From: Heterodontus francisci
Lineage: Eukaryota
Reading direction: 5' to 3'
Length of the DNA: 64,000 nucleotides
Assembly: GCF_036365525.1 (NCBI RefSeq)
Contig: NC_090380.1
Coordinates: 96,247,942-96,311,941 of the forward strand
The notes beneath the pieces are model-generated. The model searched no databases, was not told the origin of the DNA, and was given only the letters and a program-made list of their open reading frames with translations. The translations under genes were made by a program, and so were the position numbers. Of this stretch, positions 3,335 through 58,385 are shown in pieces (the stretch's first letter is position 1; every line of letters starts with the position of its first letter).

Positions 3335-4372
3335 TATTCATTCATGGGATGTGGGCGTCGCTGGCCAGGCCAGCATTTATTGCACATCCCTAATTGCCCT
3401 TGAGAAGTTGGTGGTGAGCTGCCTTCTTGAACCGCTGCAGTCCATGTTGGGTAGGTACACCCACAGTGCTGTTAGGAAGGGAGTTCCAGGATTTTGAACC
3501 GGCAACAGTGAGGGAACAGCGATATAGTTCCAAGTCAGGATGGTGTGTGACTTGGAGGGGAACTTGCAGGTGGTGGTGTTCCCATGCATTTGCTGCGCTT
3601 GCTCTTCTAGTTGGTAGAGGTCGCGGGTTTGGAAGGTGCTGTCTAAGGAGCCTTGGTGCATTGCTGCAATGCATCTTGTAGATGGTACACACTGCTGCCA
3701 CTGTGCGTTGGTGGTGGAGGGAGTGAATGTTTGTAGATGGGGTGCCAATCAAACGGGCTGCTTTGTCCTGGATAGTGTCGAGCTTCTTGAGTGTTGTTGG
3801 AGCTGCACCCATCCAGACAAGTGGAGAGTATTCCATCACACTCCTGTATTGCGCCTTGTAGATGGTGGACAGGCTTTGGGAAGTCAGGAGGTGAGTTACT
3901 CGCCTCAGGATTCCTAGCCTCTGACCTGCTCTTGTAGCCACGGTATTTATATGGCTACTCCAGTTCAGTTTCTGGTCAATGATAGCCCCTAGGATGTTGA
4001 TAGTGAGGGATTCAGCGATGGTAATGCTGTTGAATGTCAAGGGGAGATGGTTAGATTCTCTCTTGTTGGAGATGGTCATTGCCTGGCACTTGTGTGGCGC
4101 GAATGTTACTTGCCATTTATCAGCCCAAGCCTGGATATTGTCCGGGTCTTGCTGCATTTCTACACAGACTGCTTCAGTATCTGAGGAGTGGCGAATGGTG
4201 CTGAACATTGTGCAATCATCAGCCAACATCTCCACTTCTGACCTTATGATTGAAGGAAGATCATTGATGAAGCAGCTGAAGATGGTTGGGCCTAGGACAC
4301 TACCCTGAGGAACTCCTGCAGTGATGTCCTGGAGCTCAGATGATTGACCTCCAACAACCACAACCATCTTCC
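3335..4372 (-). mobile_element. 5'-truncated CR1/L2-group LINE with a 325-aa C-terminal RT ORF (3390-4367)
   Basis: [14 protein letters not shown] and WQVTFAPHKC motifs; 3' tail ..gggcaattagggatg..aataaatgctggcc..cccatgaatgaa. Confidence 0.9.
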
Positions 4373-8919: not shown

Positions 8920-10845
8920 TTTTTTTATTCGTTCCTGGGGTGGGCTTCGCTGGCTAGGCCAGCATTTATTGCCCATCCCTAATTGCCCTTGAGAAGGTGG
9001 TAGTGAGCCACCTTCTTGAACCGCTGCAGTCCATGTGGTATAGGTACACCCACAGTGCTGTTAGGAAGGGAGTTCCAGCATTTTGACCCAGCAGCAGTGA
9101 AGGAATGACGATATAGTCAGGATGGTGTGTGGTTTGGAGAGGAATTTGCAGGTGGTGTTGTTCCCATGCATCTGCTGCTCTTGTCCTTCTAGGTGATAGA
9201 GGTCACAAATTTGTAAGGTGCTGTCTAAGGAGCCTTGGTGCATTGCTGCAATGCATCTTGTGGTACACACTGCTGCCACTGTGCGTTGTTGGTGGAGGGA
9301 GTGAATGTTTGTGGATGGGATGCCAGTCAAGTGAGCTGCATTGTCCTGGATGGTGTCAAGCTACTTGAGTGTTGTTGGAGCTGCACCCATCCAGACAAGT
9401 GGAGAGTATTCCATCACACCCATGACTTGTGCCTTGTAGATAGTGGATAGGCTTTGGGGAGTCAGGAGGTGAGTTACTCGCCTCAGGATTCCTAGCCTCT
9501 GACCTGCTCTTGTAGCCAAGGTATTTATATGGCTACTCCAGTTCAGTTTCTGGTCAATGGTAACCCCTAGGATATTGATAGTGGGAGATTCAGCAATCGT
9601 AATGTCATTAAATGTCAAGGGAAGATGGTTAAATTCTCTCTTGTTGGAGATGGTCATTGCCTGGCACTTGTGTAGCACGAATGTTACTTGCCACTTATCA
9701 GCGCAAGCCTGGATATTGTCCAGGTTTTGCTGCATTTCTACACAGACTGCTTCAGTATCTGAGGAGTTTCGAATGGTGCTGAACATTGTGCAATCATCAG
9801 CGAACATCCCCACTTCTGACCTTATGATGGAGGGAAGGTCATTGATGAAGCAGATGAAAATGGTTGGGCCTAAGAACTAAGCCCTGAGGAACTCTTGCAA
9901 TGATGTCCTGGAGATGAGATGGTTGACCTCCAACAACCACAACCATCTTCCTTTGCACTATGTACGACTCCAACCAGCATAGGATTTTCCCCCGATTCTC
10001 ATTGACTCCATTTTTGCTAGGGCTCCTTGATGCCATACTTGATGTCAAGGGCAGTCACTCTCATCTCACCTCTTGAGTTCAGCTCTTTTATCCATGTTTG
10101 AACCAAGGCTGTAATGAGGTCAGGAGCTGAGAGGCCCTGGCGGAACCAAAACTGAGCGTCACTGAGCAGATTATTGCTAAGCAAGTGCCGCTTGATAGCA
10201 CTGCCGACGGCACCTTCCATCACTTTACTGATGATTGAGAGTAGACTGACAGGGTGGTAATTGGCTGGGTTGGATTTGTCCTGCTTTTTGGGTACAGGAC
10301 AGACCTGGGCAATGTTCCACATTGTCAGGTAGATGCCAGTGTTGTAGCTGTACTGGAACAGCTTGGTTAGGGGCTTGGCTCGTTCTGGGCACAGGTCTTC
10401 AGTACTATTGCCGGAGTGTTGTCAGGGTCTATAGCCTTTGCAGTATCCAGTGCCTTCAGTCGTTTCTTGATATCACGCGGAGTGAATCGAATTGGCTGAA
10501 GACTGGCATCTGTGATACTGGGGACTTCAGGAGGAGGCCGAGATGGATCATCCACTCAGCACTTCTGGCTGAAGATGGATGCAAATGCTTCAGCCTTATC
10601 TTTTGCACTGATGTGCTGGGCTCTCCCATCATTGAGGATGGGGTTATTTGTGGAGCCACCTCCTCCAGTTAGTTGTTTAATTGTCCACCACCATTCATGA
10701 CTGGATGTGGTAGGACTGCAGAGCTTAGATCTGATCCGTTGGTTGTGGGATCGCTTAGCTCTGTCTATCGCATGCTGCTTACACTGTTTGGCACGCAGGT
10801 AGTCATGTGTTCTAGCTTCACCAGGTTATCACCACATTTTGAGGT
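8920..10845 (-). mobile_element. CR1/L2-group LINE, 5'-truncated and frameshifted (same family as 3335-4372)
   Basis: RT pieces MFADDCTMF, NPANYHPVSLLSIISKVME, ALDIK; same 3' tail as the 3335 copy. Confidence 0.9.
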
Positions 10846-43669: not shown

Positions 43670-46600
43670 TTAAATTCTTTTGGGCCTCCTTATCTCGAGA
43701 GACAATGGATACGCGCCTGGAGGTGGTCAGTGGTTTGTGAAGCAGCGCCTGGAGTGGCTATAAAGGCCAATTCTGGAGTGACAGGCTCTTCCACAGGTGC
43801 TGCAGAGAAATTTGTTTGTTGGGGCTGTTGCACAGTTGGCTCTCCCCTTGCGCCTCTGTCTTTTTTCCTGCCAACTACTAAGTCTCTTCGACTCGCCACA
43901 ATTTAGCCCTGTCTTTATGGCTGCCCGCCAGCTCTGGCGAATGCTGGCAACTGACTCCCACGACTTGTGATCAATGTCACACGATTTCATGTCGCGTTTG
44001 CAGACGTCTTTATAACGGAGACATGGACGGCCGGTGGGTCTGATACCAGTGGCGAGCTCGCTGTACAATGTGTCTTTGGGGATCCTGCCATCTTCCATGC
44101 GGCTCACATGGCCAAGCCATCTCAAGCGCCGCTGACTCAGTAGTGTGTATAAGCTGGGGGTGTTGGCCGCTTCAAGGACTTCTGTGTTGGAGATATAGTC
44201 CTGCCACCTGATGCCAAGTATTCTCCGAAGGCAGCGAAGATGGAATGAATTGAGACGTCGCTCTTGGCTGGCATACGTTGTCCAGGCCTCGCTGCCGTAG
44301 AGCAAGGTACTGAGGACACAGGCCTGATACACTCGGACTTTTGTGTTCCGTGTCAGTGCGCCATTTTCCCACACTCTCTTGGCCAGTCTGGACATAGCAG
44401 TGGAAGCCTTACCCATGCGCTTGTTGATTTCTGCATCTAGAGACAGGTTACTGGTGATAGTTGAGCCTAGGTAGGTGAACTCTTGAACCACTTCCAGAGC
44501 GTGGTCGCCAATATTGATGGATGGAGCATTTCTGACATCCTGCCCCATGATGTTGGTTTTCTTGAGGCTGATGGTTAGGCCAAATTCATTGCAGGCAGAC
44601 GCAAACCTGTCGATGAGACTCTGCAGGCATTCTTCAGTGTGAGATGTTAAAGCAGCATCGTCAGCAAAGAGGAGTTCTCTGATGAGGACTTTCCGTACTT
44701 TGGACTTCGCTCTTAGACGGGCAAGGTTGAACAACCTGCCCCCTGATCTTGTGTGGAGGAAAATTCCTTCTTCAGAGGATTTGAACGCATGTGAAAGCAG
44801 CAGGGAGAAGAAAATCCCAAAAAGTGTGGGTGCGAGAACACAGCCCTGTTTCACACCACTCAGGATAGGAAAGGGCTCTGATGAGGAGCCACCATGTTGA
44901 ATTGTGCCTTTCATATTGTCATGGAATGAGGTGATGATACTTAGTAGCTTTGGTGGACATCCGATCTTTTCTAGTAGTCTGAAGAGACCACGTCTGCTGA
45001 CGAGGTCAAAGGCTTTGGTGAGATCAATGAAAGCAATGTAGAGGGGCATCTGTTGTTCACGGCATTTCTCCTGTATCTGACGAAGGGAGAACAGCATGTC
45101 AATAGTCGATCTCTCTGCACGAAAGCCACACTGTGCCTCAGGGTAGACGCGCTCGGCCAGCTTCTGGAGCCTGTTCAGAGCGACTCGAGCAAAGACTTTC
45201 CCCACTATGCTGAGCAGGGAGATTCCACGGTAGTTGTTGCAGTCACCGCGGTCACCTTTGTTTTTATAGAGGGTGATGATGTTGGCATCGCGCATGTCCT
45301 GGGGTACTGCTCCCTCGTCCCAGCACAGGCATAGCAGTTCATGTAGTGCTGAGAGTATAGCAGGCTTGGCACTCTTGATTATTTCAGGGGTAATGCTGTC
45401 CTTCCCAGGGGCTTTTCCGCTGGCTAGGGAATCAATGGCATCACTGAGTTCCGATTTGGTTGGCTGTATGTCCAGCTCATCCATGACTGGTAGAGGCTGG
45501 GCTGCATTGAGGGCAGTCTCAGTGACAGCATTCTCCCTGGAGTACAGTTCTAGGTAGTGCTCAACCCAGCGGTCCAACTGTTTGCGTTGGTCAGTGATTA
45601 TGTCCCCCGATTTAGATTTGAGGGGGGTGATCTTCTTGATGGTTGGCCCAAGAGCTCTCTTCATGCCATCATACATTCCTCTGATGTTTCCGGTGTCTGA
45701 GGCCAGCTGAATATGACTGCATAGGTGTTGCCAGTAGTCGTTTGCGCAACGCCTAGCTGTTCTTTGTGCAGTACTTCTGGCTGCTTTAAGTGCTGCGGAT
45801 GTTAAATCGCTGGGGGCTTTCTTGTCGTTCAAAAATGCAATGCGCTTAGCGGCTATGACAGGTTCCAGCTCTTCATTATGAGATTGAAACCAGTCTGCAT
45901 TTCTCTTCGCACTTTTGCCGTAGGTGGTCAAAGCTGACTCATAGATGGCGTCTCTGATGTGGGCCCACTTGGTCTCAGCATCCCCTGTGGGAGTGTTTTG
46001 AAGGGCTGTTACAAGTGAATTTAGAAATTTTTGTAACAGCTGTGGGTGAGAAATTCTGCTCGTGTTGATGCGCGGGTGGCCCTTCTGCTTGGAATGATGC
46101 AACTTCTTTGGTCTGAGTCTAACCTTGCTGCACACCAGGGAGTGGTCGGTGTCGCAGTCCGCACTGTGGAAGCTGCGTGTGATTTGAACACTGTTTAAGG
46201 CGGCTCGCCTTGTGACAATGAGGTCTAGCTGGTGCCAACGACGTGATCTTGGGTGCCTCCATGAAACCTGGTGACAGGGTTTAGTGTGAAAGAACGAGTT
46301 GGTGATGCAGAGGTTATGATAGGTATACAACTCAAGCAGTCTCTGCCCGTTCTCATTCATCCTTCCAACGCCATAGCGCCCAAGGCAGGAGGGCCATGAG
46401 TCATGGTCGGCCCCAACCCTGGCATTAAAGTCCCCCAGCAGGAATAGGTGTTCGGTGTTGGGGATGCTGCTAATGATGTTATGGAGTTGTTCATAGAACT
46501 GGTCTTTAGCTTCAGGTGCGGAGCAGAGTGTTGGAGCATAGATGCTGAGTAGGTGTACTGGACCAGAGGTGGTGAGCAGTCGGATGGACAGTATGCGTTC

Positions 46601-47440
46601 CGAGCCATTTGAGGGAGGCTCTATCATGCTGAGCAAGGAGTTTCTGATGGCGAAGCCCACTCCATGCTGTCTTGGTTCTTCAGGATCCCTGCCCTGCCAG
46701 AAAAAGGTGTAGTCTTGCTCTGCTAGAGAGCCACTCGCGGGGAGGCGAGTCTCCTGAAGTGCTGCAATGTCCACATTGAATCTACTGAGCTCGTTGTTAA
46801 TGATGGCGGTCTTCCGAGAATCGTTGATTTGTGTAAGGTCTTCCGATAGGCCAGGACACATAGTTCTGACGTTCCAGCTTGCAAAGCGAAGGGCTGGTAC
46901 CTTCTTTCCTTTTTTCATGTTGTTTGGTGCGGTGTATCAGTCCACCTTTCGGGCAATGACCCTGAGCTCCAAGCACCCATTGAAGCAGGCAGACTGTGGC
47001 GGGACAGAACCTTATTGACCGGGGGCTGCCCGGTTTGAGGCGGGCGGTAGCTGTCCAGTGAGGTGCAATGACCTCTCCCACCGACAAAGGCAACCCGTGG
47101 CGCCCAGTTTCTACGCCAATTTATCTGGACTTATAACCCGTAACTGCTGCCTTCCGTGTTGTTTTAGTCGCTGTGAGGCAACTATGGAGTGACCTCTCCA
47201 TGGCGCATGCCTGGGCACATTTATGGGGGTTGAGAGTTGCCCAGTCGTCAAAACCCCCCTCTCGGCCTTTCTGGTGGGGTCCAAAGGAGTGCAGGACACG
47301 ACGTTTGGCACCAGTATGGCTGCAGGAACTGCCGGAAACATGCCAAAGGTGACACATGACCGCCTACGGGGTTCCGCTCCGGATTTTCTGTTAGGGTTTA
47401 CTCCCTTAGCCTTGGTCTCTCCCGAGACGCCCACAAGGCA
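43670..47440 (-). mobile_element. Apparently full-length RTE-clade LINE
   Basis: ~520-bp 5' UTR, single EN-RT ORF, short 3' UTR followed by an A-rich tail. Confidence 0.92.
43727..46918 (-). CDS. RTE endonuclease/reverse transcriptase (1063 aa, uninterrupted)
   Basis: APE motifs SWNVRT, LQETR, GDFNA, TDH; RT motifs NYRGISLL, DLTKAFD, GVKQGC, LFADD; C-terminal CSTC..HSRRC zinc-finger-like motif. Confidence 0.95.
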   Translation of the reverse strand: MKKGKKVPALRFASWNVRTMCPGLSEDLTQINDSRKTAIINNELSRFNVDIAALQETRLPASGSLAEQDYTFFWQGRDPEEPRQHGVGFAIRNSLLSMIEPPSNGSERILSIRLLTTSGPVHLLSIYAPTLCSAPEAKDQFYEQLHNIISSIPNTEHLFLLGDFNARVGADHDSWPSCLGRYGVGRMNENGQRLLELYTYHNLCITNSFFHTKPCHQVSWRHPRSRRWHQLDLIVTRRAALNSVQITRSFHSADCDTDHSLVCSKVRLRPKKLHHSKQKGHPRINTSRISHPQLLQKFLNSLVTALQNTPTGDAETKWAHIRDAIYESALTTYGKSAKRNADWFQSHNEELEPVIAAKRIAFLNDKKAPSDLTSAALKAARSTAQRTARRCANDYWQHLCSHIQLASDTGNIRGMYDGMKRALGPTIKKITPLKSKSGDIITDQRKQLDRWVEHYLELYSRENAVTETALNAAQPLPVMDELDIQPTKSELSDAIDSLASGKAPGKDSITPEIIKSAKPAILSALHELLCLCWDEGAVPQDMRDANIITLYKNKGDRGDCNNYRGISLLSIVGKVFARVALNRLQKLAERVYPEAQCGFRAERSTIDMLFSLRQIQEKCREQQMPLYIAFIDLTKAFDLVSRRGLFRLLEKIGCPPKLLSIITSFHDNMKGTIQHGGSSSEPFPILSGVKQGCVLAPTLFGIFFSLLLSHAFKSSEEGIFLHTRSGGRLFNLARLRAKSKVRKVLIRELLFADDAALTSHTEECLQSLIDRFASACNEFGLTISLKKTNIMGQDVRNAPSINIGDHALEVVQEFTYLGSTITSNLSLDAEINKRMGKASTAMSRLAKRVWENGALTRNTKVRVYQACVLSTLLYGSEAWTTYASQERRLNSFHLRCLRRILGIRWQDYISNTEVLEAANTPSLYTLLSQRRLRWLGHVSRMEDGRIPKDTLYSELATGIRPTGRPCLRYKDVCKRDMKSCDIDHKSWESVASIRQSWRAAIKTGLNCGESKRLSSWQEKRQRRKGRANCATAPTNKFLCSTCGRACHSRIGLYSHSRRCFTNH

Positions 47441-49130
47441 GTATCTAAAGCAGGATGTGGATCAGACACCATCAGCAGTGTTGAGAGGCTGGGATACCAG
47501 GAAATTAAGCAGGGTTGATTACATTTTCTTTTTGTGCTATCTTTCTAAAGTCTGCTTGTGATTTGTTTTGCTTTGATCTAACATTAGAGGATACAATTTT
47601 GTACCATTTGATTGAAGCAAGTTAATCAGAGTCCACTGTTAATTTGAGGCAAATGTGGTTGCAATGTAAACGGATCCCAAAGATCGGAGATCACAGTTTG
47701 CTCCTTCTGTGTGTGTCGCACTGCTGAGTGAACTTTGGGTAACTGTGGAAATGGCCTGTTGTTGCCCTGCAGTCCATTGTGTGTGTGCATGTAAACACAA
47801 TCAGCGAGACGTGTACCTGAGTGACACTTGCTACAATTGCTGCCACAGGAAGATAAGGAGAACTACAAGCTGATAACAGATGTTATCAGAGCAGTAAGCT
47901 GCTTTGTAACACTCTGGGGAACTCCCTTAGGAAAACAAATAGAGACATAACAGTTTGTCACTTGCTTTTGAATGATTTTGCCCTTTATTTTCAAGGGGAG
48001 GGTACAGAACTCCAGGGCTGCCCTAGATGGGATATGAAGTAAGACTAATTTTTTTAAACCCTTTGCCACAATGAGAAGAAATAATGAAATTCTATCCCTT
48101 TCTGTATTGAATGCTGGAATCATACAGTATGCATTACAATAGATTAAAACAATTGTATTCCAATTCTGCAATAGGCTATTAATCAATATTAAGCATTTTA
48201 CTCAGAAGAGGACACTTGCTGCCTATGTTCTGACCATGTGACCCACAGTCAGTTGCTCTGGATAGCAGTCTAGCAGACCACAGAGAACATGAAGAGACTC
48301 GCAAGTCCTGTTGACCGTGGCCTATGCTGATTAGGCCTATACACTGGAGAAGGAAGAATGTATGGAGCCCTACAAAGGGCAAAGGGAAAAGTACACCAAA
48401 CAGGAGTTATAAGAAGAGTTAGCAGAAGTCACTGTAGATCTGATCAAATTGGTTGTGTTTGAGGATGTTTTTGAAGGTGGGGATTGATGTAGTAAGGCAG
48501 ATATCGGGGTATCGGTTCTGAGTGGGTTGACCCCCAGAACTAGGACCTAATTCTAACTATTTCTAATTCAGATAAATTATCTGAATTCAAAAACTTAATG
48601 CAAGGTGGTCAAATTTGCAAATGGTGCTAAACCATCATGGGCAGTAGAATCTAGAAGGCAGCTGAGAAATTACAGAATGATTTTGACAAAAAATGCGGGT
48701 GGTCAGAACAATGGTAGATTAAACTTAAGGCAGTAAAGTGGTGCAAATGGGAGAAAAATATAAACAACACACGTGCTTCATCATCAATGGCGCTGAAATA
48801 CCTAAGGATCAAACTGAAAGAGACCTAGGAATCTTAGTGGATTCCATGCTAAACATGTCCAACCAGTGCAGAGCAGCTTTCAACAACACCAATAGATATT
48901 GAAGAATACAGCCAACAGAGTAAAATGTACCTCAGGGAAGTAATAATTAAATTATGTAATGATTAAACTCTGGTGATACCGCACCTGAAATAATATGGCC
49001 ACTTCTGATTGCCAAGAAATAAGAGAGGCATTTGAATGTTGAAGGTAGAGTAGAGCCCTGAATTGGATCACTAACGTCAGAGTCTGAGGACAGATGAAAG
49101 AATAGTGAGCTTTTTAACTAAGAAAGGAGC

Positions 49131-49390
49131 TGTAAAGAGAGCTTTTTATGTTGTCTGATGCAACATAAATGAGATGCATGGAGTTTAGTTGATTGAAGAT
49201 CTCAAACAGGTTTATTAAACAGCTAAACTATTATATACAGTGCAAAGCTATCTATTTATAGAAGCTGCCTCTAGGTGTTACAGCAGCAGAGTGAGACTAG
49301 CGTGTAGCCACATGGCTGCATCCTGGTACTCAGCTCATTAGCATATTAAGATCTTAAAGGGACATCACTCTTAAAGGCAATAACACAACA
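49131..49390 (-). repeat. 3' LTR
   Basis: Direct repeat of 52959-53220; AATAAA and TATA-like motifs on the minus strand; preceded by purine tract GGAAAGAAGGG-TAA (49391-49404). Confidence 0.92.
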
Positions 49391-49553
49391 TTACCCTTCT
49401 TTCCAAAGAAAAGTCTTGTATGCTAAAAGCAAACGCATGTTAAATTGGATAACATCAAAATTATTTATATAGGCATAGAGATTATGAATTTTACAAATAT
49501 AGAAGCTCAAAAGTTCATATATCGTCTAGGTCATTTGATAACTCTTGCTCGGG

Positions 49554-50000
49554 GAGTTTGCATCACATCTGTTACTGTTCTTTCTGAAGTTTCTCCCTCT
49601 TTGCATTTAGTTTCTATTGCTCTCCTTTCAGCTTGCTAACATACTTTGTTGCTTTTCTCAAGATGACCACTTTTGAGGCCTTGTTATTCTTGGAAAGTTC
49701 CGCCACCTCATCTAGAAGAGCCAATAGACAACGCTTCAACTCATTCCTCCTCTGCCTCTTCAGGACATTGTGTCTCCTTTGCCTCTCCTCATCCTCCGTG
49801 TCTGAAGGCATGGGGCTCCAGGTTGAGGACTTTTGGGGGGCTAAGAGTAGTTGGTCTCATGGAGATACCTGTCCATTCTGGCTCATTGTGGTGTTGGCAG
49901 TTCTCTAAAGAATAGAAGTGAAGGTGTGGCATAGTTGTGCTGTTGCTGGGTTTCCATACTGCACTGTTTGATGCTGACCAGAGTCTGCAAGCGGGTTCTG
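49554..50000 (-). pseudogene. myc: Captured MYC-family C-terminal segment (exon-3 equivalent: HNY motif, NLS-like, bHLH-Zip), decayed
   Basis: LVSIKQC..QQQHNYATPS; PTPQ*ARMD; SPMPSDTEDEERQRRHNVLKRQRRNELKRCLLALLDEVAELSKNNKASKVVILRKATKYV; zipper KLNAKREKLQKEQ*QM*CKL. Five in-frame stops and one frameshift near 49831-49840. Confidence 0.9.
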
Positions 50001-50025
50001 GTCTTTGGAGATTTCCCCTTGGCAA

Positions 50026-51460
50026 TGCTCTCGTGGATGGTTATGATGTTGAGGTCCTTACACGCTGGTAGTCTTGCCACTTCTGGTCCGCTCGTGTCTA
50101 CTAGGTAGAATGTTTGTGGTTTCCAAGGTAACTTGCCGAATCTGCATTGCATTGTTAATGTGCCACTGCACAGGATGGGTGACCCATTGAATGCAGATAA
50201 CTTGGCAGTTGTCGGTTGTATCATTGATCTCCAATGTCTCCGGTACATATTTTTACAACCAAAGAAGGAGTAATGTACTGCTAATTCAGTCTCACCACTC
50301 CACAGGTCATAGCATATTAGTTAAGTTTCCCACCTACCAGAAAGTAGCCAAATTAAACACTCTTTTTGTCCCCCAGAATAAAGCACACCAAACCAGGTTT
50401 CTTTAAACAACAACAAAATTAACTATTTATTAATAAACTAAGTCTTAAACAATAATGAGATAATTCGAAATGTGAAAAGATTCTTTTTAAAACTTCTTAT
50501 TCTTCCTAACCCTCATGCACATATACATTAAAAAAAAGGTTAACTGTTTTTAAAAGGATGTTTTGGATTTCAGCTGTTTCTTAGGAATAATAAAATAACT
50601 GGGGTGTAACGTTCTGGTAGGATATTTCTGGGTCGGAGAGGTGTCCCAGAGTCGAAAAGTTGGATGCCACTTGAAGTCTTTCCAGGCGAGGTTGGCAAAC
50701 AGTCTTTGATGGGTAGGTGTTCACAGCACTTCATCTGCAGCAGACATCAGCAAAGGGTGTAGCAACAGGTCTACTTGGGTTTGGAAATAGCAGTCTAACA
50801 ATAGAAGCTTTCTTGAGCTCTCAGGATCTCTGCCAACATAAGAGGCAACAGAAATCACTCCTGAGGAAAAGATTTTTCAGAGACTGGAGGCAATAGGAAT
50901 TTTCTACCTTTTAAAATGCAGGGCTTCCTCTCAGCAAAGCAGCCTTCCTCCACAGAGTGCAGCAACTTCTCTTTTCCTGGGTCTTTTCCCTCTAGGGGTC
51001 TTTTTTCTCTCCAGGCAGATCACAGCGACCACCTCAAATGTAGAATTTCTTTTTACAAGAGAGGGAAGCCATCTTTTTCAGGGAGAGGTCTTTTTTTCTG
51101 GTCTGCAAGTTTGTTCTGCCTTCTGCCTGCCCAGCACTAGTCTTTTACAAAGCAAAAGTGAAACTGAACTCTAACAATAAGTCATGTTACCTGTCATTAT
51201 TTCCCTTACTGTTGTTTGGAACAGGTGTCTTGCAGTCTGTCCCTCTCAGTTCAAATGCCAAGTTTCAGCATTCAATGTTCACAGAAAAATCCTCTTTCTT
51301 AGTTTTTAAAAACACACAGAATTCTTAGCTTTCAATAAAAAAACAAAACTCTTGTGACAATATCTTTGAAGAATCAGACTGTTCGGATATTTCCACTAGC
51401 TCTGATGTCAATCTTGACCCTGAGTCTATGTTTGCCAGCTTTCTTTGGGTGCATGATGTT
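50026..51460 (-). pseudogene. Gypsy aspartic protease remnant, split by the solo LTR at 50251-51359
   Basis: LRVKIDIRASGNI (decayed DTGAS active site). After LTR removal it continues in frame FKD-MY..TAKLSAFNGSPI..FYLVDTSGPEVARLPACKDLNII. Confidence 0.8.
50251..51359 (-). mobile_element. Solo LTR nested in the protease gene
   Basis: Homologous to the 7508 and 20549 elements; exact 4-bp TSD ATAT (50247-50250, 51360-51363). Confidence 0.85.
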
Positions 51461-51728
51461 AATAATGGCGAAAGCTTCCAGTTGTTGGACTTCATCAACG
51501 AGATGTGTCAGGTCCACAATGTGGAATGCCTGTTCATCTTCTGTCTGAGAACTACTTCTCTCTGAGTCTTGTCTCAGGTCTGCTTTGCTCTGGACCTCGT
51601 GTGTTGGCCTGCATTTACACAGGTTTCTGGCACTTTCCTTGCTGCTGTTTGCAGTGTTGCTGCACCTGACTTCTGTTTGCTTGTGTCTGACCGTTATTTC
51701 TGGCTGAGTCTTTGGAGCCAGAATTCCT

Positions 51729-51810
51729 GCATGGGCAGACCCAGTGTCCTTTAACACCTCATGCCTTGCACAGGTCTCGAAATGCAAGGCAATTTCGCTG
51801 TGAGTGGGAC
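51729..51810 (-). pseudogene. Gag nucleocapsid zinc-knuckle remnant
   Basis: HSQRNCLAFRDLCKA*GVKGHWVCPC = Cx2Cx4Hx4C with the second Cys mutated to a stop. Confidence 0.7.
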
Positions 51811-51813
51811 AGA

Positions 51814-52648
51814 CTGGTGTGCAGCAAAGTTAGACTCAAACCAAAGAAGCTACATCACCCCAAGCAGAAGGGCCACCTGCGCATCAACACTAACAGAATT
51901 TCTTATCCACAGCTGTTACATAAGTTTCTAAATTCACTTGAAAAAGCCCTTCAAAACACTCCTGCAGGGGATGCAGAGACCAAGTGGGCCCACATCAGAG
52001 ACGCCATCTATGACTCAGCAATAACCACCTTTGGCAAACGTGAGAAACAGAATGCAGACTAGTTTCAATCTCATAATGAAGAGCTGGAACCTGTCATAGC
52101 CGCCAAACGCATAGCACTGTTGAACTACAAGAAAGCCCCCAGCGAGTTAACATCCATAGCACTTGAAGTAGCCAGAGGCGCTGCACAAAGAACAGCCAGG
52201 CGCTGTGCAAATGACTACTGGCAACACCTATGCAGTCGTATTCAGCTGGCCTCCGACACCAGAAACATCAGAGGAATGTATGATGGCATTAAGAGAGCTT
52301 TTGGGCCAACCATCAAGAAGATCGCCCCCCTCAAGTCTAAATCAGGGGACACGACCACTGACCAATGCAAACAAATGGAACGATGGGTGGAGCACTACCT
52401 AGAACTGTACTCCAGGGAAAATGTTGTCACTGATACCACCCTCAATACAGCCCAGTCTCTGCCAGTCATGGATGAGTTGGACGAACAGCCAACAAAATCG
52501 GAACTTAGTGATGCCATTGATTCTCTAGCCTGTGGAAAAGCCCCGGAAAGGATGGCATTACCCCTGAAATAATAAAGTGTGCCAAGCCTACTATACTCTC
52601 AGCATTCCATGAACTGCTTTGCCTGTGCTGGGATGAGGGAGCAGTACC
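51814..52648 (+). mobile_element. Internal RTE fragment inside the LTR element (antisense to it)
   Basis: Homologous to ~46138-45302 of the full-length RTE; lacks 5' end, 3' tail and TSD. Confidence 0.9.
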
Positions 52649-52946
52649 TGAATTTTTTGCTCTCCCAGGGAGCCTTTGACAGACAAAAAAAAAATCAATC
52701 CTTTAATGACTTCAAGGCTTCTCTTTTTTTAAAAAATGGGGATTCCTCTACCAACAGCAGACTGACTCACCAGATCACAGTAATTACTTTTCAGCCTGTC
52801 TTTTAGCTCTGTCCTCTGCACCTGTAGGTGAGTTCCTTTTTCTTCTTTACACTGAGCCAATATTTCTTTTAACTTTCTTTTAGCTGTAGGTAGTCTTTAA
52901 AGCTGTTTTCCTGTGGTCTTCAATCTTGTATCTTGTCTTCTCACAA

Positions 52947-52958
52947 CTGCTGCCACCA
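52947..52958 (-). promoter_or_regulatory. Primer-binding site (tRNA-Leu type)
   Basis: TGGTGGCAGCAG directly after the 5' LTR; the complement of the vertebrate tRNA-Leu(AAG/TAG) 3' end is TGGTGGCAGCGG. Confidence 0.75.
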
Positions 52959-53220
52959 TGTAGTGAGAAGCTTTTTATGTTGTCTGATGCAACATCAATG
53001 CGATGCATGGAGTTCAGTTGATTGAAGATCTCAAACAGGTTTATTAAACAGCTGAACTATTATATACAGTGCAGAGCCATCTATTTACAAAAGCTGCCTC
53101 TAGGTGTTACAGTAGCAGAGTGAGACTGGCATGTATTTCACATGACTGCATCCTGGTACTCAGCTCATTAGCGTACTAAGATCTTAAAGGGATATCAATC
53201 TTAAAGGCAATAACACTACA
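52959..53220 (-). repeat. 5' LTR
   Basis: Direct repeat of 49131-49390; followed on the plus strand by TSD GGAGC. Confidence 0.92.
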
Positions 53221-55899
53221 GGAGCTGTCTGAAAAACGATCATACAAGATCATTAAAGGTACGGAAGAAATTAGCCTAGATTATTCCTTTAAATTTAAAC
53301 TGTGGGAGTTGAACTAGAGGATATGGGTTCAAACTAGTAAATGGTAGTTGTAGGACTGATATCAGGAAATTCTCTGTCTCATGAAGAGTGATCAACTGAG
53401 GGAGTGAACTACCTTTAGGCAAAAAACTCTCAAATAATTTCAGGAACAACAGGATGCTAACACTTGGGGTATGTGGGGAGGTGTTAAGATCTCTGTGGAT
53501 GGATGGATTAAGGTGGGATGCATGACCTTTCTCACCCAAACGTATCTTGTGAATAGTCACTCAAGTAACAACTTTCTAATAATTGATCTGGCAATTGTAT
53601 TATATTGTCTGTCCTCCTGTGTAGAGTGTTGCAATGATGAGTGCCTAATGTAAGGATCAGGTCTTGCTAAACGCCAACCAAGAAGACTCCTCAGAGAAGG
53701 TGATATATCCCCCCAAAAAGCCAACAACTCAAAAAGAAATTGACTGCTCAGAAATGTAACCCTACAAATAGGGCCATTGCTTTAGAAGTGCCTCAGTAAG
53801 TTTTCTTTTATACTCTTCCTTATGCTATTAAATATTACTCCTGCTCATACATATGTTCACTATGTAAGACAGAAAAATTATATTTCTTTGTTTTAAAATT
53901 AGCTAAGTTCTACTTCAACAGAAACATATGATGCTGGCTGGTGATCCAAAGCTGATGCTGTAACCAATAACCACCATAGCAATGCTGGTGAGCCTTGCAG
54001 TAGGAGGAACACTTATCTGAATAATGCAACTTAATAATGGACTAATTCTTGTGTATCTTTAGATATTATCATCATTTGAATGTTCCAACGTGTGAAAGAA
54101 CTGTAAAGAATTAAGCAGTTTAGTAAGAGGTAAACTAAAACTAACCAACATAAAAAGGAGTTTGGGTTTAATTGTTGAGAGGCCACAATACCTCATCCAG
54201 TTAATTCCAAAAGACGATTGGGCTATGTCTCTCATGTGCTTATGTGCTTGACAAGCCAAAATTATGGGGGACCCTGGTCTTTGCTCTGAACTACCTGCAA
54301 CTCAACATCAATCTCCTACTTCCCCATTTAATCTCCACATACAAATACCCCAAACCACAAAAGGTAATTGAGGAAATTCACTGGGGTAGTTATTCATTCA
54401 CACATCTCTGCTATTCAACTCTGCTTTGGTCCAGACATTTTTTCCCAGCACAGGAACCTGTATAAAGTTGGCAGAACCCAAACACTGGCTAAGTCAGCGA
54501 TGGTAAAGCATGCCTCTTTGGTATTGTATTACTCCTATGGAGACATTAGGAAGCTGATATAGAATAATCTGGCACTGAATTATTCCTATGGGGACATTAA
54601 GATATAAAGGAAATATTTGCTGCCAGGAATACAGTAAAATGTACCCAAGGGTACCTCTTTCTGAGCAAAGTAGTTGTGACTGAAGAAATGACTCTGGACG
54701 GTGCTGATTGACTCATGATTTCAGTGTGTCTACTTTACATATAGCCATCATTTGCTTAGGAACAGTGGCCATTTTGTTCTCTCCTCTTTCATACTCAATG
54801 ATAAGATGATATGTCACATAGATAAGTACAGACAATGGAGAGCATTTAGCCTATCTAGCTCATGGAGATGACAAAAGCAATTTAAATAGCAACTTTGACG
54901 TAGAAAAATATCCCTTTAACATTGAAAAACAGATGTAATCAGAAAGAAAATGGACACCAAGACAAAGCTGAAGCTATTTGAAGTGCTGGAATGGTCTTAA
55001 AGGAAAAGAGGGAGGTGAAGGGGTTTAGGAAGGAAATTCCAGAGTGTGGGGCAAAGATGCCTGCAGGCATGACTGCCAGTGCTGGTGCGATAGCAGGGAA
55101 GGGCTGCACAATAGGGTGAAATTGGAGCAACGGAGATTATTGGGAACTAGTGGAGGGCTAGAGGAGGTTACAGAGATAAGGAGAAGCAAATCCATGGAAG
55201 GATTTAAACACAAGGATGAGAGTTTTAAATTGAAGGTTTTGGGGGACTGGTGGAATTTTACTGGCCCCTTGGTGACAGGCTTAGAGATGGTGCGTGGTGC
55301 CATTAAAATGTTGGGGGACTGTGTCGGAGCCGATCCCCATCGTCTTCCAAGTTTCCCGGGATGGTTGGGCAGTGGGATTGCAGGATGGGCAGGTAATTGA
55401 GGCTGTTAAGCAGCCAAATTGAGAGCAATTTTGCAGTACTTTTTAAATTTTCCATGAGGAGTATCGGCAGCTTGCCTGTTAAAAGGAGGTGAGAGCTTAT
55501 TGGCAGGTGAGTGTCAGCTGGAAGTGACAGCCATTGAGTAAAGCTGCATTGTCAGGCTCAGGTTCTGGTAAGCAAAGGTTTGGACATTTGCAGGGATTGC
55601 AGAGTGTGAGGCCAGGGAGGCAGGTAGTTAGTGGAAGCGTGTTCTCCAGGTCCACTGCAGCAGGTGCAGACAGCACTAGGGGGTTGAGAGGTATTGCACC
55701 GTGAAGGCTCCGAATCTCAATGTGTGCTCTGCATTCTCAGTTTGACTCCTCCAACGAGGAAGAGAGTGGGAGAGAGAGACTGCACCAGCCACATGGAGTG
55801 GGGCTGCAGTGGCCAGAGGAGCACCAGCACCATGAAACTGTGACGAGATGCAGACAATGAGGGTGCATATGGCAATAAGGCAGGCCAATGTTCGCAGAA

Positions 55900-57110
55900 G
55901 ACACTCCCCAGCTGAAAGGGTTTGCAGATGAAGGCTTAGCTTCATGGAGATGTCGGAGCATCAGCGTCTGCGAAGATTGCATCTGTCCAGGCAGGTGGGA
56001 TCAGAGCTGTGCGGAATGCTGGAGGAAGAGTTGAAGCCACTAGGATGTGGTGAGCAGCCTTGCCTGTGGCAGTGAAGGTTACCGTGGCGCTCGACATTTT
56101 CGCTACAGTGTCCTTCCAGGAATTGTCTGGAGACATATGTGGAAAAACCTTTTCATGCAGCGAATGGTTAAAGTCTGGAATGTGCTGCCTGAAAGTGTGG
56201 TGTAGGCAGGTTCAATTGAAGCATTTGAAAGCGAATTAGACTGTTGTATGAAAAGGAAGAATGTGCAGGGTTATGGGGAGAAGGCAGGGGAGTGGCACTA
56301 GGTGAATTGATCATTCGGAGAGCCGGTGCAGACTAGACGGACCAAATGGCCTCCTTCTGCGCTGTAAGAATTCTGTGATTCTGTGATTCTATGTGGTATC
56401 TCTCAGTCATCACTGTATCAAGCAGGTGATGGATGCCATGTACCAGAGGACAGAGCAATACATCAGGGATTGTACCGATCAGGCTAGTCAGGTTGAGAGT
56501 GCAATTAGATTTGGGGCCATGGCTGGATTCCCTCAGGTGCAGGGGGTAAATGACTGCATGCATGAGGCCATCCAGGCTCCTTCAGAGCAGTCAGGTTCCT
56601 TTGTGAACAGGAAGGGGTTCAACCCACTGAATGGCAGTCTATGACTGCCGCAAAATCCTGGGAAGCTTGTACATCCTGAGACAGTACCAGGTGCCTTAGC
56701 TGTTCAGGCCACCCAAACGCCGTTGTGAATGAATGGGTGACAAGGGGTATTCACTAAAGATATGGCTGGTTATACCTGTGCAGAACTCCAGAACAGCCAG
56801 AGGAAACCTGCAACTGCTGCCATGTAACTACAAGGACGACCATTGAGCAAGCCTTGAGCAAACATTTTGAAAATGAGCTTCTCCCAAATTGTGGTGGTAT
56901 GTTGTGCACTGCATAACCTGATGCTCCAGAGGGGAGTTGCATTGGAGACGGACGCCCACGTTGAGTGTGCCACCTCCTCCTGCAATGAGGACGACGTGGA
57001 GGTGCTTTGAGACCAGGCGGCCAATGGAAATGCACCCCTGATTCCGATATCTTTGGGCATTGACAACGTGCCACGGAGACACGTGACTCACTCATAAGCA
57101 CACATTTCTC
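55900..57110 (+). pseudogene. Harbinger DDE nuclease (HARBI1-like) remnant
   Basis: ALPVAVKVTVALDIFATVSFQELSGDICG|ISQS..CIKQVMDAM..AGFPQVQGVNDCMH..FVNRKGF; split by a CR1 tail (56143-56390) with ATGTGG duplicated. Confidence 0.8.
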
Positions 57111-57974
57111 TGAGATTCCATTAAACGCCTCTGGAAATGATTCAGCCTTGGTGGCCTTTCATTAAATACCCTTACCATTTCATTGGCCCCGCCATTACAT
57201 AATTCCAAAGGATGCATTCACCATTGGTCCTCATTCTGTGTGCACCTTTTCATGCCCTCCACCTCAAATGCTTGTCATCTGATAATGACCCACGAGTGCA
57301 GAAATGAACAGATGAGCCATTAAAGTATGCATTATAAGAACTTTAAAGTTGCACAAAGATCTAACACTGTGGCATTCAGCAAATAAATATCATCCAGTGA
57401 GACCCCAAGTGCTACTAGGTGCATTGACGTGAGTGCTTCTGGGTGCTCCTATGTGGTGCTGTCCCAGCGCCTGTAGTTGGCGTGGAGGCAGGCTGCTGCC
57501 TTTTCTACTCCAGTGCGTGAGATGGCTGCAGCGGGCTGCCTTTGGGTACCTGAGCTCTAGAGGGTTCTGGCACATTCGGAGCCACCTGCATCCATGCAGG
57601 GGCCACCTCTGTCATCAGGGCTGCATGCAGCATTTGTGTCACCATCAAAGGGGATGAAATTCCACCGTAAATGCAAAGAACGCCTTGAAAAGAGCTCCCA
57701 ACAGCTTCAGGCAGCCGCTGCTCGACCCTTTCAAGGTTCACCTGCGCTTCCTGCTTACCTGGAGTGGTTCAACACCTGCAACGGGTCCATGCTTCTTGTG
57801 CCATCTTGCCTACCTATTGCTCAACACAGCTCATGGATGTGGCCATACAGTGAAGATCGATGTACACCTCCTTCATCAACTCAGTGGGATGCTGCATGTG
57901 GCGCTCCATGAGGATTGCCACTTTCTCAACTGAGGAGGTCATGCACTTACACACAGAGACACGGCTCCACTTAT

Positions 57975-58385
57975 TGGAGATGGTGGCTTAGTGGTAATGT
58001 CACTGAACTAGAAATCCAGAGGCCTAGGCTAATGTCCTGGGGACATGGGTTCAAATCCCACCATGGCAGCTGGTGGAATTTAAATTCAAATCATAAATTC
58101 AATTACTAAAAATCTAGATTTAAAAGCTGGGCTCAGTAATGGTGACCATGAAACTATCACTCATTGTCGTAAAAACCCATCAGGTTCCCTAATATCCTTT
58201 AAGCAAGGAAATCTGCTGTCCTTATCTGGCCTGGCCTACATGTGACTCCAGACTCACAGCAATGTGGTTGACTCTGAACTGCCCTCTGAAATGACCTAGC
58301 AAGCCACTCAGTTGTCATGAGCAATTAGGGATGGGTAACAAGTGCTGGCCTTGCCAGCAATGCCCACATCCCATGAAAGAATAAA
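57975..58385 (+). mobile_element. tRNA-derived SINE with CR1/L2-group LINE tail
   Basis: gtggcttagtgg (A-box-like), ggttcaaatccc (B box); tail matches the 3335 LINE. Confidence 0.8.

Follow-up and report, generated by a model that had tools for sequence, protein, structure and literature searches.

The window, by which we mean the complete 64,000-nucleotide stretch of Heterodontus francisci DNA analysed here, holds an LTR element in which a protease is followed by part of a Myc protein. How were the two brought into one reading frame, is their join peculiar to this locus, and what has kept it? We found that the in-frame join of protease and Myc is a family trait, and that the Myc-bearing family is a high-copy, helper-dependent Gypsy-type family with an in-frame Gag-protease-Myc.

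Anatomy of the copy in the window

The element lies on the minus strand from 53220 to 49131 (Table 1) and is a decayed, defective Gypsy-type copy with two LTRs of about 260 bp, which are 91% alike. About 1 kb, with most of gag in it, is missing at the nested LINE fragment (sister short copies measure about 3.17 kb), and the protease motif reads DIR; a Gag-Pro-Myc order can therefore be demonstrated from other copies only. In a sister copy, gag is matched by zf-CCHC_3 (E 0.0019). The bHLH of the window copy (49784-49626, minus strand) is recognized by the PF00010 profile with an E value of 8e-10. The copy is interrupted by stops and one frame slip: stops are found at 51376-51374, 49885-49883 and 49843-49841, three more stand at the zipper end, and the slip lies at a run of C. 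This copy is dead.

Table 1 Features of the Myc-bearing element, with positions in the 64,000-nucleotide window
Feature	Position	Strand	Basis
5-bp target-site duplication GCTCC, upstream side	53221..53225	-	sequence
5' LTR, 262 bp, TG...CA	52959..53220	-	91% identity to 3' LTR; K2P 0.086
Primer-binding-site-like TGG... stretch adjoining the 5' LTR	52947..52958	-	sequence/position only
5' leader of the element	52685..52946	-	matches other copies
Nested LINE fragment, antisense to the element	51814..52648	+	88-89% to LINE at 45303-46138
gag C-terminal remnant (zinc-knuckle region) and protease N-half, with frameshift and stops	51360..51813	-	sequence comparison
Protease catalytic Asp codon	51409-51407	-	within gag/protease remnant
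Nested 1,109-bp solo-LTR-like repeat, 4-bp duplication ATAT	50251..51359	-	sequence; copy search
Protease C-half ending at the junction	50030..50250	-	80-87% to helpers without myc
Captured mych exon-3 piece: HNY motif, NLS-like basic stretch, bHLH, zipper	49557..50030	-	88% to host gene on G000:C16
Integrase C-terminal tail remnant, out of the Myc frame in the window's form	49507..49551	-	sequence comparison
Polypurine tract GGAAAGAAGGG	49394..49404	-	sequence
3' LTR	49131..49390	-	LTR comparison
5-bp target-site duplication GCTCC, downstream side	49126..49130	-	sequence

The first-pass annotation of this locus had proposed that removal of a nested solo LTR restores the frame, and this holds: the 1,109-bp insert (51359-50251) has ATAT on both sides, is absent from the other copies and belongs to a high-copy repeat of the same length (8,527 first-look candidates, most scored matches being full length). 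Insert and one ATAT together account for 1,113 bp, which leaves an Asp-to-HNY spacing of 357 nt, the commonest in the family. The annotated ORF 50248-49883 (minus strand, 121 aa from its ATG) is indeed open and runs from the protease C-half into Myc sequence. The proposed join is in frame but had to be relocated to about 50030 (between TIHE and SIAKGKSP), some 14 codons before LVSIK. Likewise, the frame does reach the bHLH by way of the slip at the C run, which at this size occurs in 0 of the other 90 copies, but there is a second stop at 49843-49841, and three more stand at the zipper end. The stretch RARVIK*PRRYMNF*, annotated as a probable integrase tail, is a genuine integrase remnant; in the window's form it stands in the third frame and not in that of Myc, the two being in frame only in longer forms.

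Elsewhere in the window, a LINE at 43727-46936 (minus strand) has an uninterrupted frame of 1,069 aa with endonuclease and RT and matches the LINE fragment inside the Myc element at 88-89%. Direct repeats at 3351-3982 and 8940-9560, 89-93% alike and about 5.6 kb apart, are probably the LTRs of another element, and short frames with a CCALHNL motif at about 56700-58000 recall, as we presume, Harbinger-type transposases.

Donor gene, helper element and extent of the family

Of 1,624 candidates found with PF01056, 119 were scored, and among these only three host Myc-family genes came to light; L-Myc was not one of them and may sit in the unscored remainder. The three are a c-Myc-like gene, an N-Myc-like gene and mych (G000:C5, C3 and C16; L070-L073, L078, L082). 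The element copies share 88-92% DNA identity with the gene on C16, compared with 67% over a short stretch with the c-Myc-like gene, and the exons of the C16 gene translate to P0001, the myelocytomatosis oncogene homolog (mych) of Heterodontus francisci. The name mych is that of the source's annotation, and the donor was assigned by closest DNA and protein likeness. "L-Myc" had served as the first donor label and was dropped once protein hits pointed to mych.

In 45 of the longer copies, 39 of them with exact spacing, the 3' end of exon 2 is fused to exon 3 without the 1.7-kb intron, so that the source was a spliced mRNA. The captured stretch comprises roughly the final 63 codons of mych exon 2 together with almost the whole of exon 3. 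In all copies mapped it starts at host ruler position 4082-4166, after the DCMW box (which we take to be Myc box II), and the N-terminal activation region is therefore absent. In the short form the EEIDVV motif is gone as well, and what remains is HNY, the basic NLS-like stretch and the bHLH-Zip. Zebrafish mych is described as maternally expressed in PMC2323570; shark mych would thereby be in the germ line, if it behaves like the zebrafish gene.

Among 15 loci fetched via the integrase tail, 12 are myc-less helper copies. These share LTR type, gag, protease and tail with the Myc copies and then carry RT, RNase H and integrase (RVT_1, E 2.5e-20; rve, E 1e-9). In the Myc copies, the spliced 3' half of host mych takes the place of RT, RNase H and the integrase core; the exchanged part begins some 20 codons into RT and extends to the integrase tail. 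Short look-alike stretches are present at both capture points (one helper copy per side). By its features, the helper protease stretch is a retroviral aspartyl protease (score 0.96); it had no match in Pfam or solved-structure searches, and a search for longer homologues of the stretch found none. A protease fold from five sequences had a mean pLDDT of 33.5 and was set aside. The catalytic Asp is kept in 29/32 short, 15/19 middle, 20/27 long and 9/10 helper copies.

Direct LTRs with TG...CA ends, a target-site duplication, a polypurine tract and a primer-binding site (by position only) are those of a Ty3/Gypsy element, as is the order protease-RT-RNase H-integrase in the myc-less copies. The nearest named RT relatives of the helper are echinoderm elements with 56-58% identity. 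We presume a likeness to Mag/SURL-type Gypsy elements, judged by general features and nearest hits only, in the single gag-pol frame, the CCHC gag, the PR-RT-RH-IN order, the 5-bp duplication and the TRSGR..KP..RY tail. The intron-less host piece between discontinuous retrotransposon halves is in turn the feature of LTR-mediated retrocopies. RT-bearing copies are nested within every gag-pro clade, in trees that are weakly supported; one copy labelled myc-less in the gag-pro tree, L173, carries a short myc piece.

Exact counts with patterns taken from the window gave at least 1,747 sites matching a bHLH 30-mer within 3 mismatches and at least 560 matching a junction-spanning 24-mer within 2 mismatches; the reversed-pattern controls were 0 for both. 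These patterns recover 40-56% of the short copies and 61-87% of all copies in our samples, and scaled totals come roughly to 1,000-1,400 short copies and 2,000-2,900 overall. A DNA search with the host exon returned 2,896 candidates, and a window-based DNA search 42 matches from 40 scored of 7,349 candidates. The analysed set consists of the window and 90 copies, of which 39 were chosen by DNA likeness to the window, 19 via the Myc_N profile (which favours open frames) and 32 via DNA likeness to the host exon. An independent sample of 30 loci was chosen by gag-protease alone; 25 were new, and five repeats of earlier places were excluded. The copies fall into a long, two middle and a short form, the last being that of the window, and the elements measure 3.2-3.8 kb with no env-like stretch seen.

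Some pairs of copies are unusually alike, namely L060/L061 (G000:C18), L114/L126 (C40) and L104/L116 (C8); L061, the near-identical twin of L060, was excluded from the codon-distance, residue/indel and protease-Asp counts. In L104/L116 the myc part is near-identical and the junction types differ, a pattern suggestive of duplication, conversion or recombination. A truncated piece of the Myc element with one LTR also lies antisense within a different Gypsy-type element (L139:5034-5619, oriented).

All examined copies are old and decayed. The median K2P distance of LTR pairs is 0.11-0.12 in all groups (50 copies; 0.086 in the window), which at an assumed rate of 1e-9 per site per year, an order of magnitude, corresponds to about 55 million years. 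Element-type gene models were found only in H. francisci among the best 120 of 492 protein matches. Six public models of this species are element copies (P0002, P0004, P0006, P0009, P0010 and P0012), of which P0009, P0004 and P0012 read from the protease through into Myc in three forms. Models of this kind bear the names N-myc-like or myc-like; the sequence derives from mych. Contigs about 85% alike from the runs of two other organisms cover the whole stretch. Contigs that bridge the short junction come from runs of organism A (X12 records 7 and 8) and organism B (X5 record 21) whose RNA label is a guess; they show presence of the family, not transcription. Read depths from such runs were set aside, host mych transcripts contributing to the Myc part. 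For organisms B and C, the shares of words in the runs amounted to 0.06-0.08. The open literature searched listed no LTR retrotransposon of sharks that bears myc; the family may already be catalogued in subscription journals, repeat libraries or supplements.

Reading frames and the fate of the Myc residues

The proposal of an ancestral Gag-Pro-Myc in one frame is borne out by the other copies. Between the start of gag and the protease, all 10 intervals have a commonest spacing divisible by 3 in the short, middle and long forms, and this spacing equals the helpers' commonest value (one interval tied). Four junction types upstream of the zipper are shared between copies, and all are in frame. 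At the capture point, preserved in the long form, 21 of 29 measurable copies are in frame, 20 of them at 60 nt, the remainder carrying small indels of various sizes. The middle-form deletions of 129 and 108 nt are in frame in 12/17 measurable copies, and the window-type deletion of 378 nt in 40/40 copies and in 18/20 of the independent sample. Since some gaps were split in the alignment, the sizes given for deletions are net sums. Downstream of the zipper, the frame of the integrase tail is preserved in four of five types, namely at the capture point and after deletions of 213, 309 and 393 nt. The fifth, the 382-nt deletion of the window's form, is out of frame and the commonest tail variant; it gives the zipper a new end of ~23 residues with a stop ~100 nt before the LTR, near the native stop. 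In addition, three copies share two compensating deletions that regain the frame at the cost of the last zipper turn, and a 12-nt gag deletion common to 13 copies is in frame.

The first-pass annotation had cautioned that an in-frame join has a one-in-three chance. This worry is lessened, with 4/4 shared upstream types (p 0.013-0.023) and 8/9 types overall (p 0.001-0.003; 0.001 at 0.34) in frame. The chance level was set by private indels, 49 of 143 being in frame, and by repeats of 3-5 nt between the two regions, with an in-frame share of 0.32-0.39. Longer repeats are more often in frame (7/13 and 8/20 at 6 nt or more; 5/5 and 4/7 at 7 nt or more), and at a null of 0.5 the p values are 0.06 for 4/4 and 0.02 for 8/9. 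Shared stops, the other circumstance named as fatal to the proposal, were not encountered either: among the copies examined no stop is common to all, the most frequent occurring in no more than 35/89, and the element was thus not dead at capture. The stops seen most often, in 22-35 of 69-90 copies, are spread over the three groups and fall on CpG sites, a pattern to be expected of decay after insertion.

The basic region of host mych aligns exactly with that of c-Myc, in which His359, Glu363 and Arg367 read the E-box (as described in PMC10437117), and five of five outgroup shark proteins retain all three. In the element, Glu is kept in 9/29 long, 0/21 middle and 0/39 short copies, mostly with Lys in its place; His is kept in 24/28, 7/21 and 9/39, respectively, and Arg in 81/89 copies. 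Neither of the lost sites, Glu or His, is CpG in the host, and the independent sample agrees (Glu 1/22, His 3/21). These counts suggest an order of forms from long with Glu through long with Lys and middle to short, in copy trees that are weakly supported. HLH and zipper residues are kept in ~70-100% of copies, which fits cargo or function, except for the last zipper Leu, present in 4/39 short copies.

Codon selection was judged from pairwise distances only, and the myc test, with 154 codons and ~10 lineage changes, has low power. Within groups, the myc dN/dS of 0.82-0.87 serves as the neutral baseline. In a three-way split, dN and dS are 0.012 and 0.035 on the host branch; on the long-form branch they are ~0 and 0.013 (P 0.04 with all codons, 0.09 without CpG codons), which may hint at early constraint on Myc. 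On the short-form branch they are 0.018 and 0.012 (bHLH-Zip alone, 0.013 versus 0.014), so the codon test proposed earlier gave no sign of purifying selection on Myc along this branch at that low power. The net dN/dS of gag-protease is 0.30-0.36 for the short form against the long form or helpers (0.30 short versus long). This low value may reflect the helpers' selection, brought in by recombination, because gag-pro divergence is three times that of myc and RT-bearing copies occur in every gag-pro clade.

What kept the frame

We lean towards the explanation that selection kept one open frame and that Myc rode along as disarmed cargo. A Gypsy-type element with a single gag-pol frame would have packaged spliced mych mRNA alongside its own RNA, and two template switches at short look-alike stretches would have swapped the RT/RNase H/integrase core for mych, in frame at both ends; building on the observed anatomy, intron loss and frames, we infer such switching as the capture route, after the template-switch model described in PMC5131818. 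The product would still have made Gag and protease, taken RT and integrase from helpers and kept exchanging gag-pro with them, and would have shrunk through successive deletions from the long to the two middle forms and the short one. Selection would have kept the frame open from gag to about the native ORF end, a plausible reason being that an RNA which is translated and free of stops is stable and gets packaged by the Gag it encodes. Myc itself would mostly be cargo, its activation region never present and its base-reading Glu lost early and His later; with these two gone, DNA binding and any harm from it would go as well.

Alternatively, the Myc piece may have been a useful protein, either a nuclear, DNA-blind bHLH-Zip that binds Max as a dominant negative or a dimerising part that carries Gag-protease into the nucleus, and the deletions would have trimmed it to this nuclear core. 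We consider this possible, though doubtful. All upstream deletions spare HNY, the basic NLS-like stretch and the bHLH-Zip; in the 76-codon bHLH-Zip, 2 of ~7 lineage changes outside CpG fall on the three base-reading residues (p ~0.02, post hoc); Myc-bearing copies number 27 versus 3 RT-bearing ones in the sample chosen by gag-pro alone; and dN is near 0 on the long-form branch. However, dN is not below dS on the short-form branch, bHLH-Zip alone included, the three-copy variant is without its final zipper turn, most short copies no longer have the last zipper Leu, and short defective elements frequently outnumber their helpers even without useful cargo, as is generally known. Like Omomyc and Hydra Myc3, the module is a bHLH-Zip without N-terminal boxes, and for Omomyc and the Myc-box-deficient Myc3, competition for Max is described as proposed or shown (PMC7226798, PMC10177328). 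Hydra Myc3 binds E-boxes with Max in the account of PMC10177328, whereas the shark module lacks the base-reading Glu, so that any action it may have would be confined to sequestration. That the captured Myc evolved over successive waves (2,000-3,000 copies) into a DNA-blind, Max-binding natural dominant negative, altering cell state or bringing the particle to the nucleus, seems unlikely to us.

Rather unlikely, too, is that nothing past the protease was selected and that the in-frame joins are by-products of switching at in-frame short repeats. The junctions do lie on look-alike stretches with similar codons, in-frame cases are overrepresented among the longer repeats between the regions, the tail variant seen most often breaks the frame and short-branch Myc codons look neutral; against this stand the 8/9 shared junction types (p 0.001-0.02 across the nulls tried), the in-frame gag deletion in 13 copies and the compensating double deletion in three. 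The first-pass annotation had also compared the locus with MC29, an exogenous retrovirus with a transforming, activation-competent v-Myc derived from c-myc. The layout agrees in outline, and as in the avian gag-myc virus presented in PMC10177328 the element is replication-defective and helper-dependent, with myc in frame behind Gag and replacing pol. Unlike MC29, it is a germ-line, Gypsy-type element without env, its donor is mych, and a whole protease precedes Myc; moreover, the Myc piece lacks the activation region and its E-box contacts were lost, and in this functional respect the comparison fails. The window's form also appears to have lost the protease-RT spacer, the expected place of the protease cut releasing a Myc module, which the annotation had envisaged. 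An activated Gag-Myc that drove proliferation of carrier cells and thereby spread the element is accordingly very improbable. Nine long-form copies keep Glu, but capture began downstream of the DCMW box in all copies mapped, Glu is lost in 80/89 copies, and the 3.2-3.8-kb elements show no env-like region; for short and middle forms this explanation is largely refuted. The element is built like MC29 but could not have worked like it.

As described in PMC5131818, LTR-mediated retrocopies in animals and Bs1 in maize likewise have a spliced host mRNA piece between discontinuous LTR-retrotransposon halves and secondary retroposition; they also have look-alike stretches at both switch points, to which those of the shark element, judged on one helper copy per side, may correspond. 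For Bs1 that account gives between one and five copies, and for two of the Drosophila cases more than one insertion site, compared with at least 1,747 copies in the shark. Unlike the cases presented there, the shark family has passed through successive structural forms and carries a proto-oncogene fused in frame to Gag-protease.

Retroviral oncogene capture is known from short-lived, tumour-derived isolates, and the LTR retrocopies described in PMC5131818 are low-copy. The shark family is the fossil record of an oncogene capture that became part of the germ line and multiplied to thousands of sites. What befell the oncogene afterwards can be read across the copies, with the frame kept, the activation region absent and the DNA contacts lost stepwise. 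In public gene models, the myc-like naming of element copies inflates the Myc family of this shark. With this family one can test which parts of a captured oncogene a selfish element retains, and whether the frame alone is selected.
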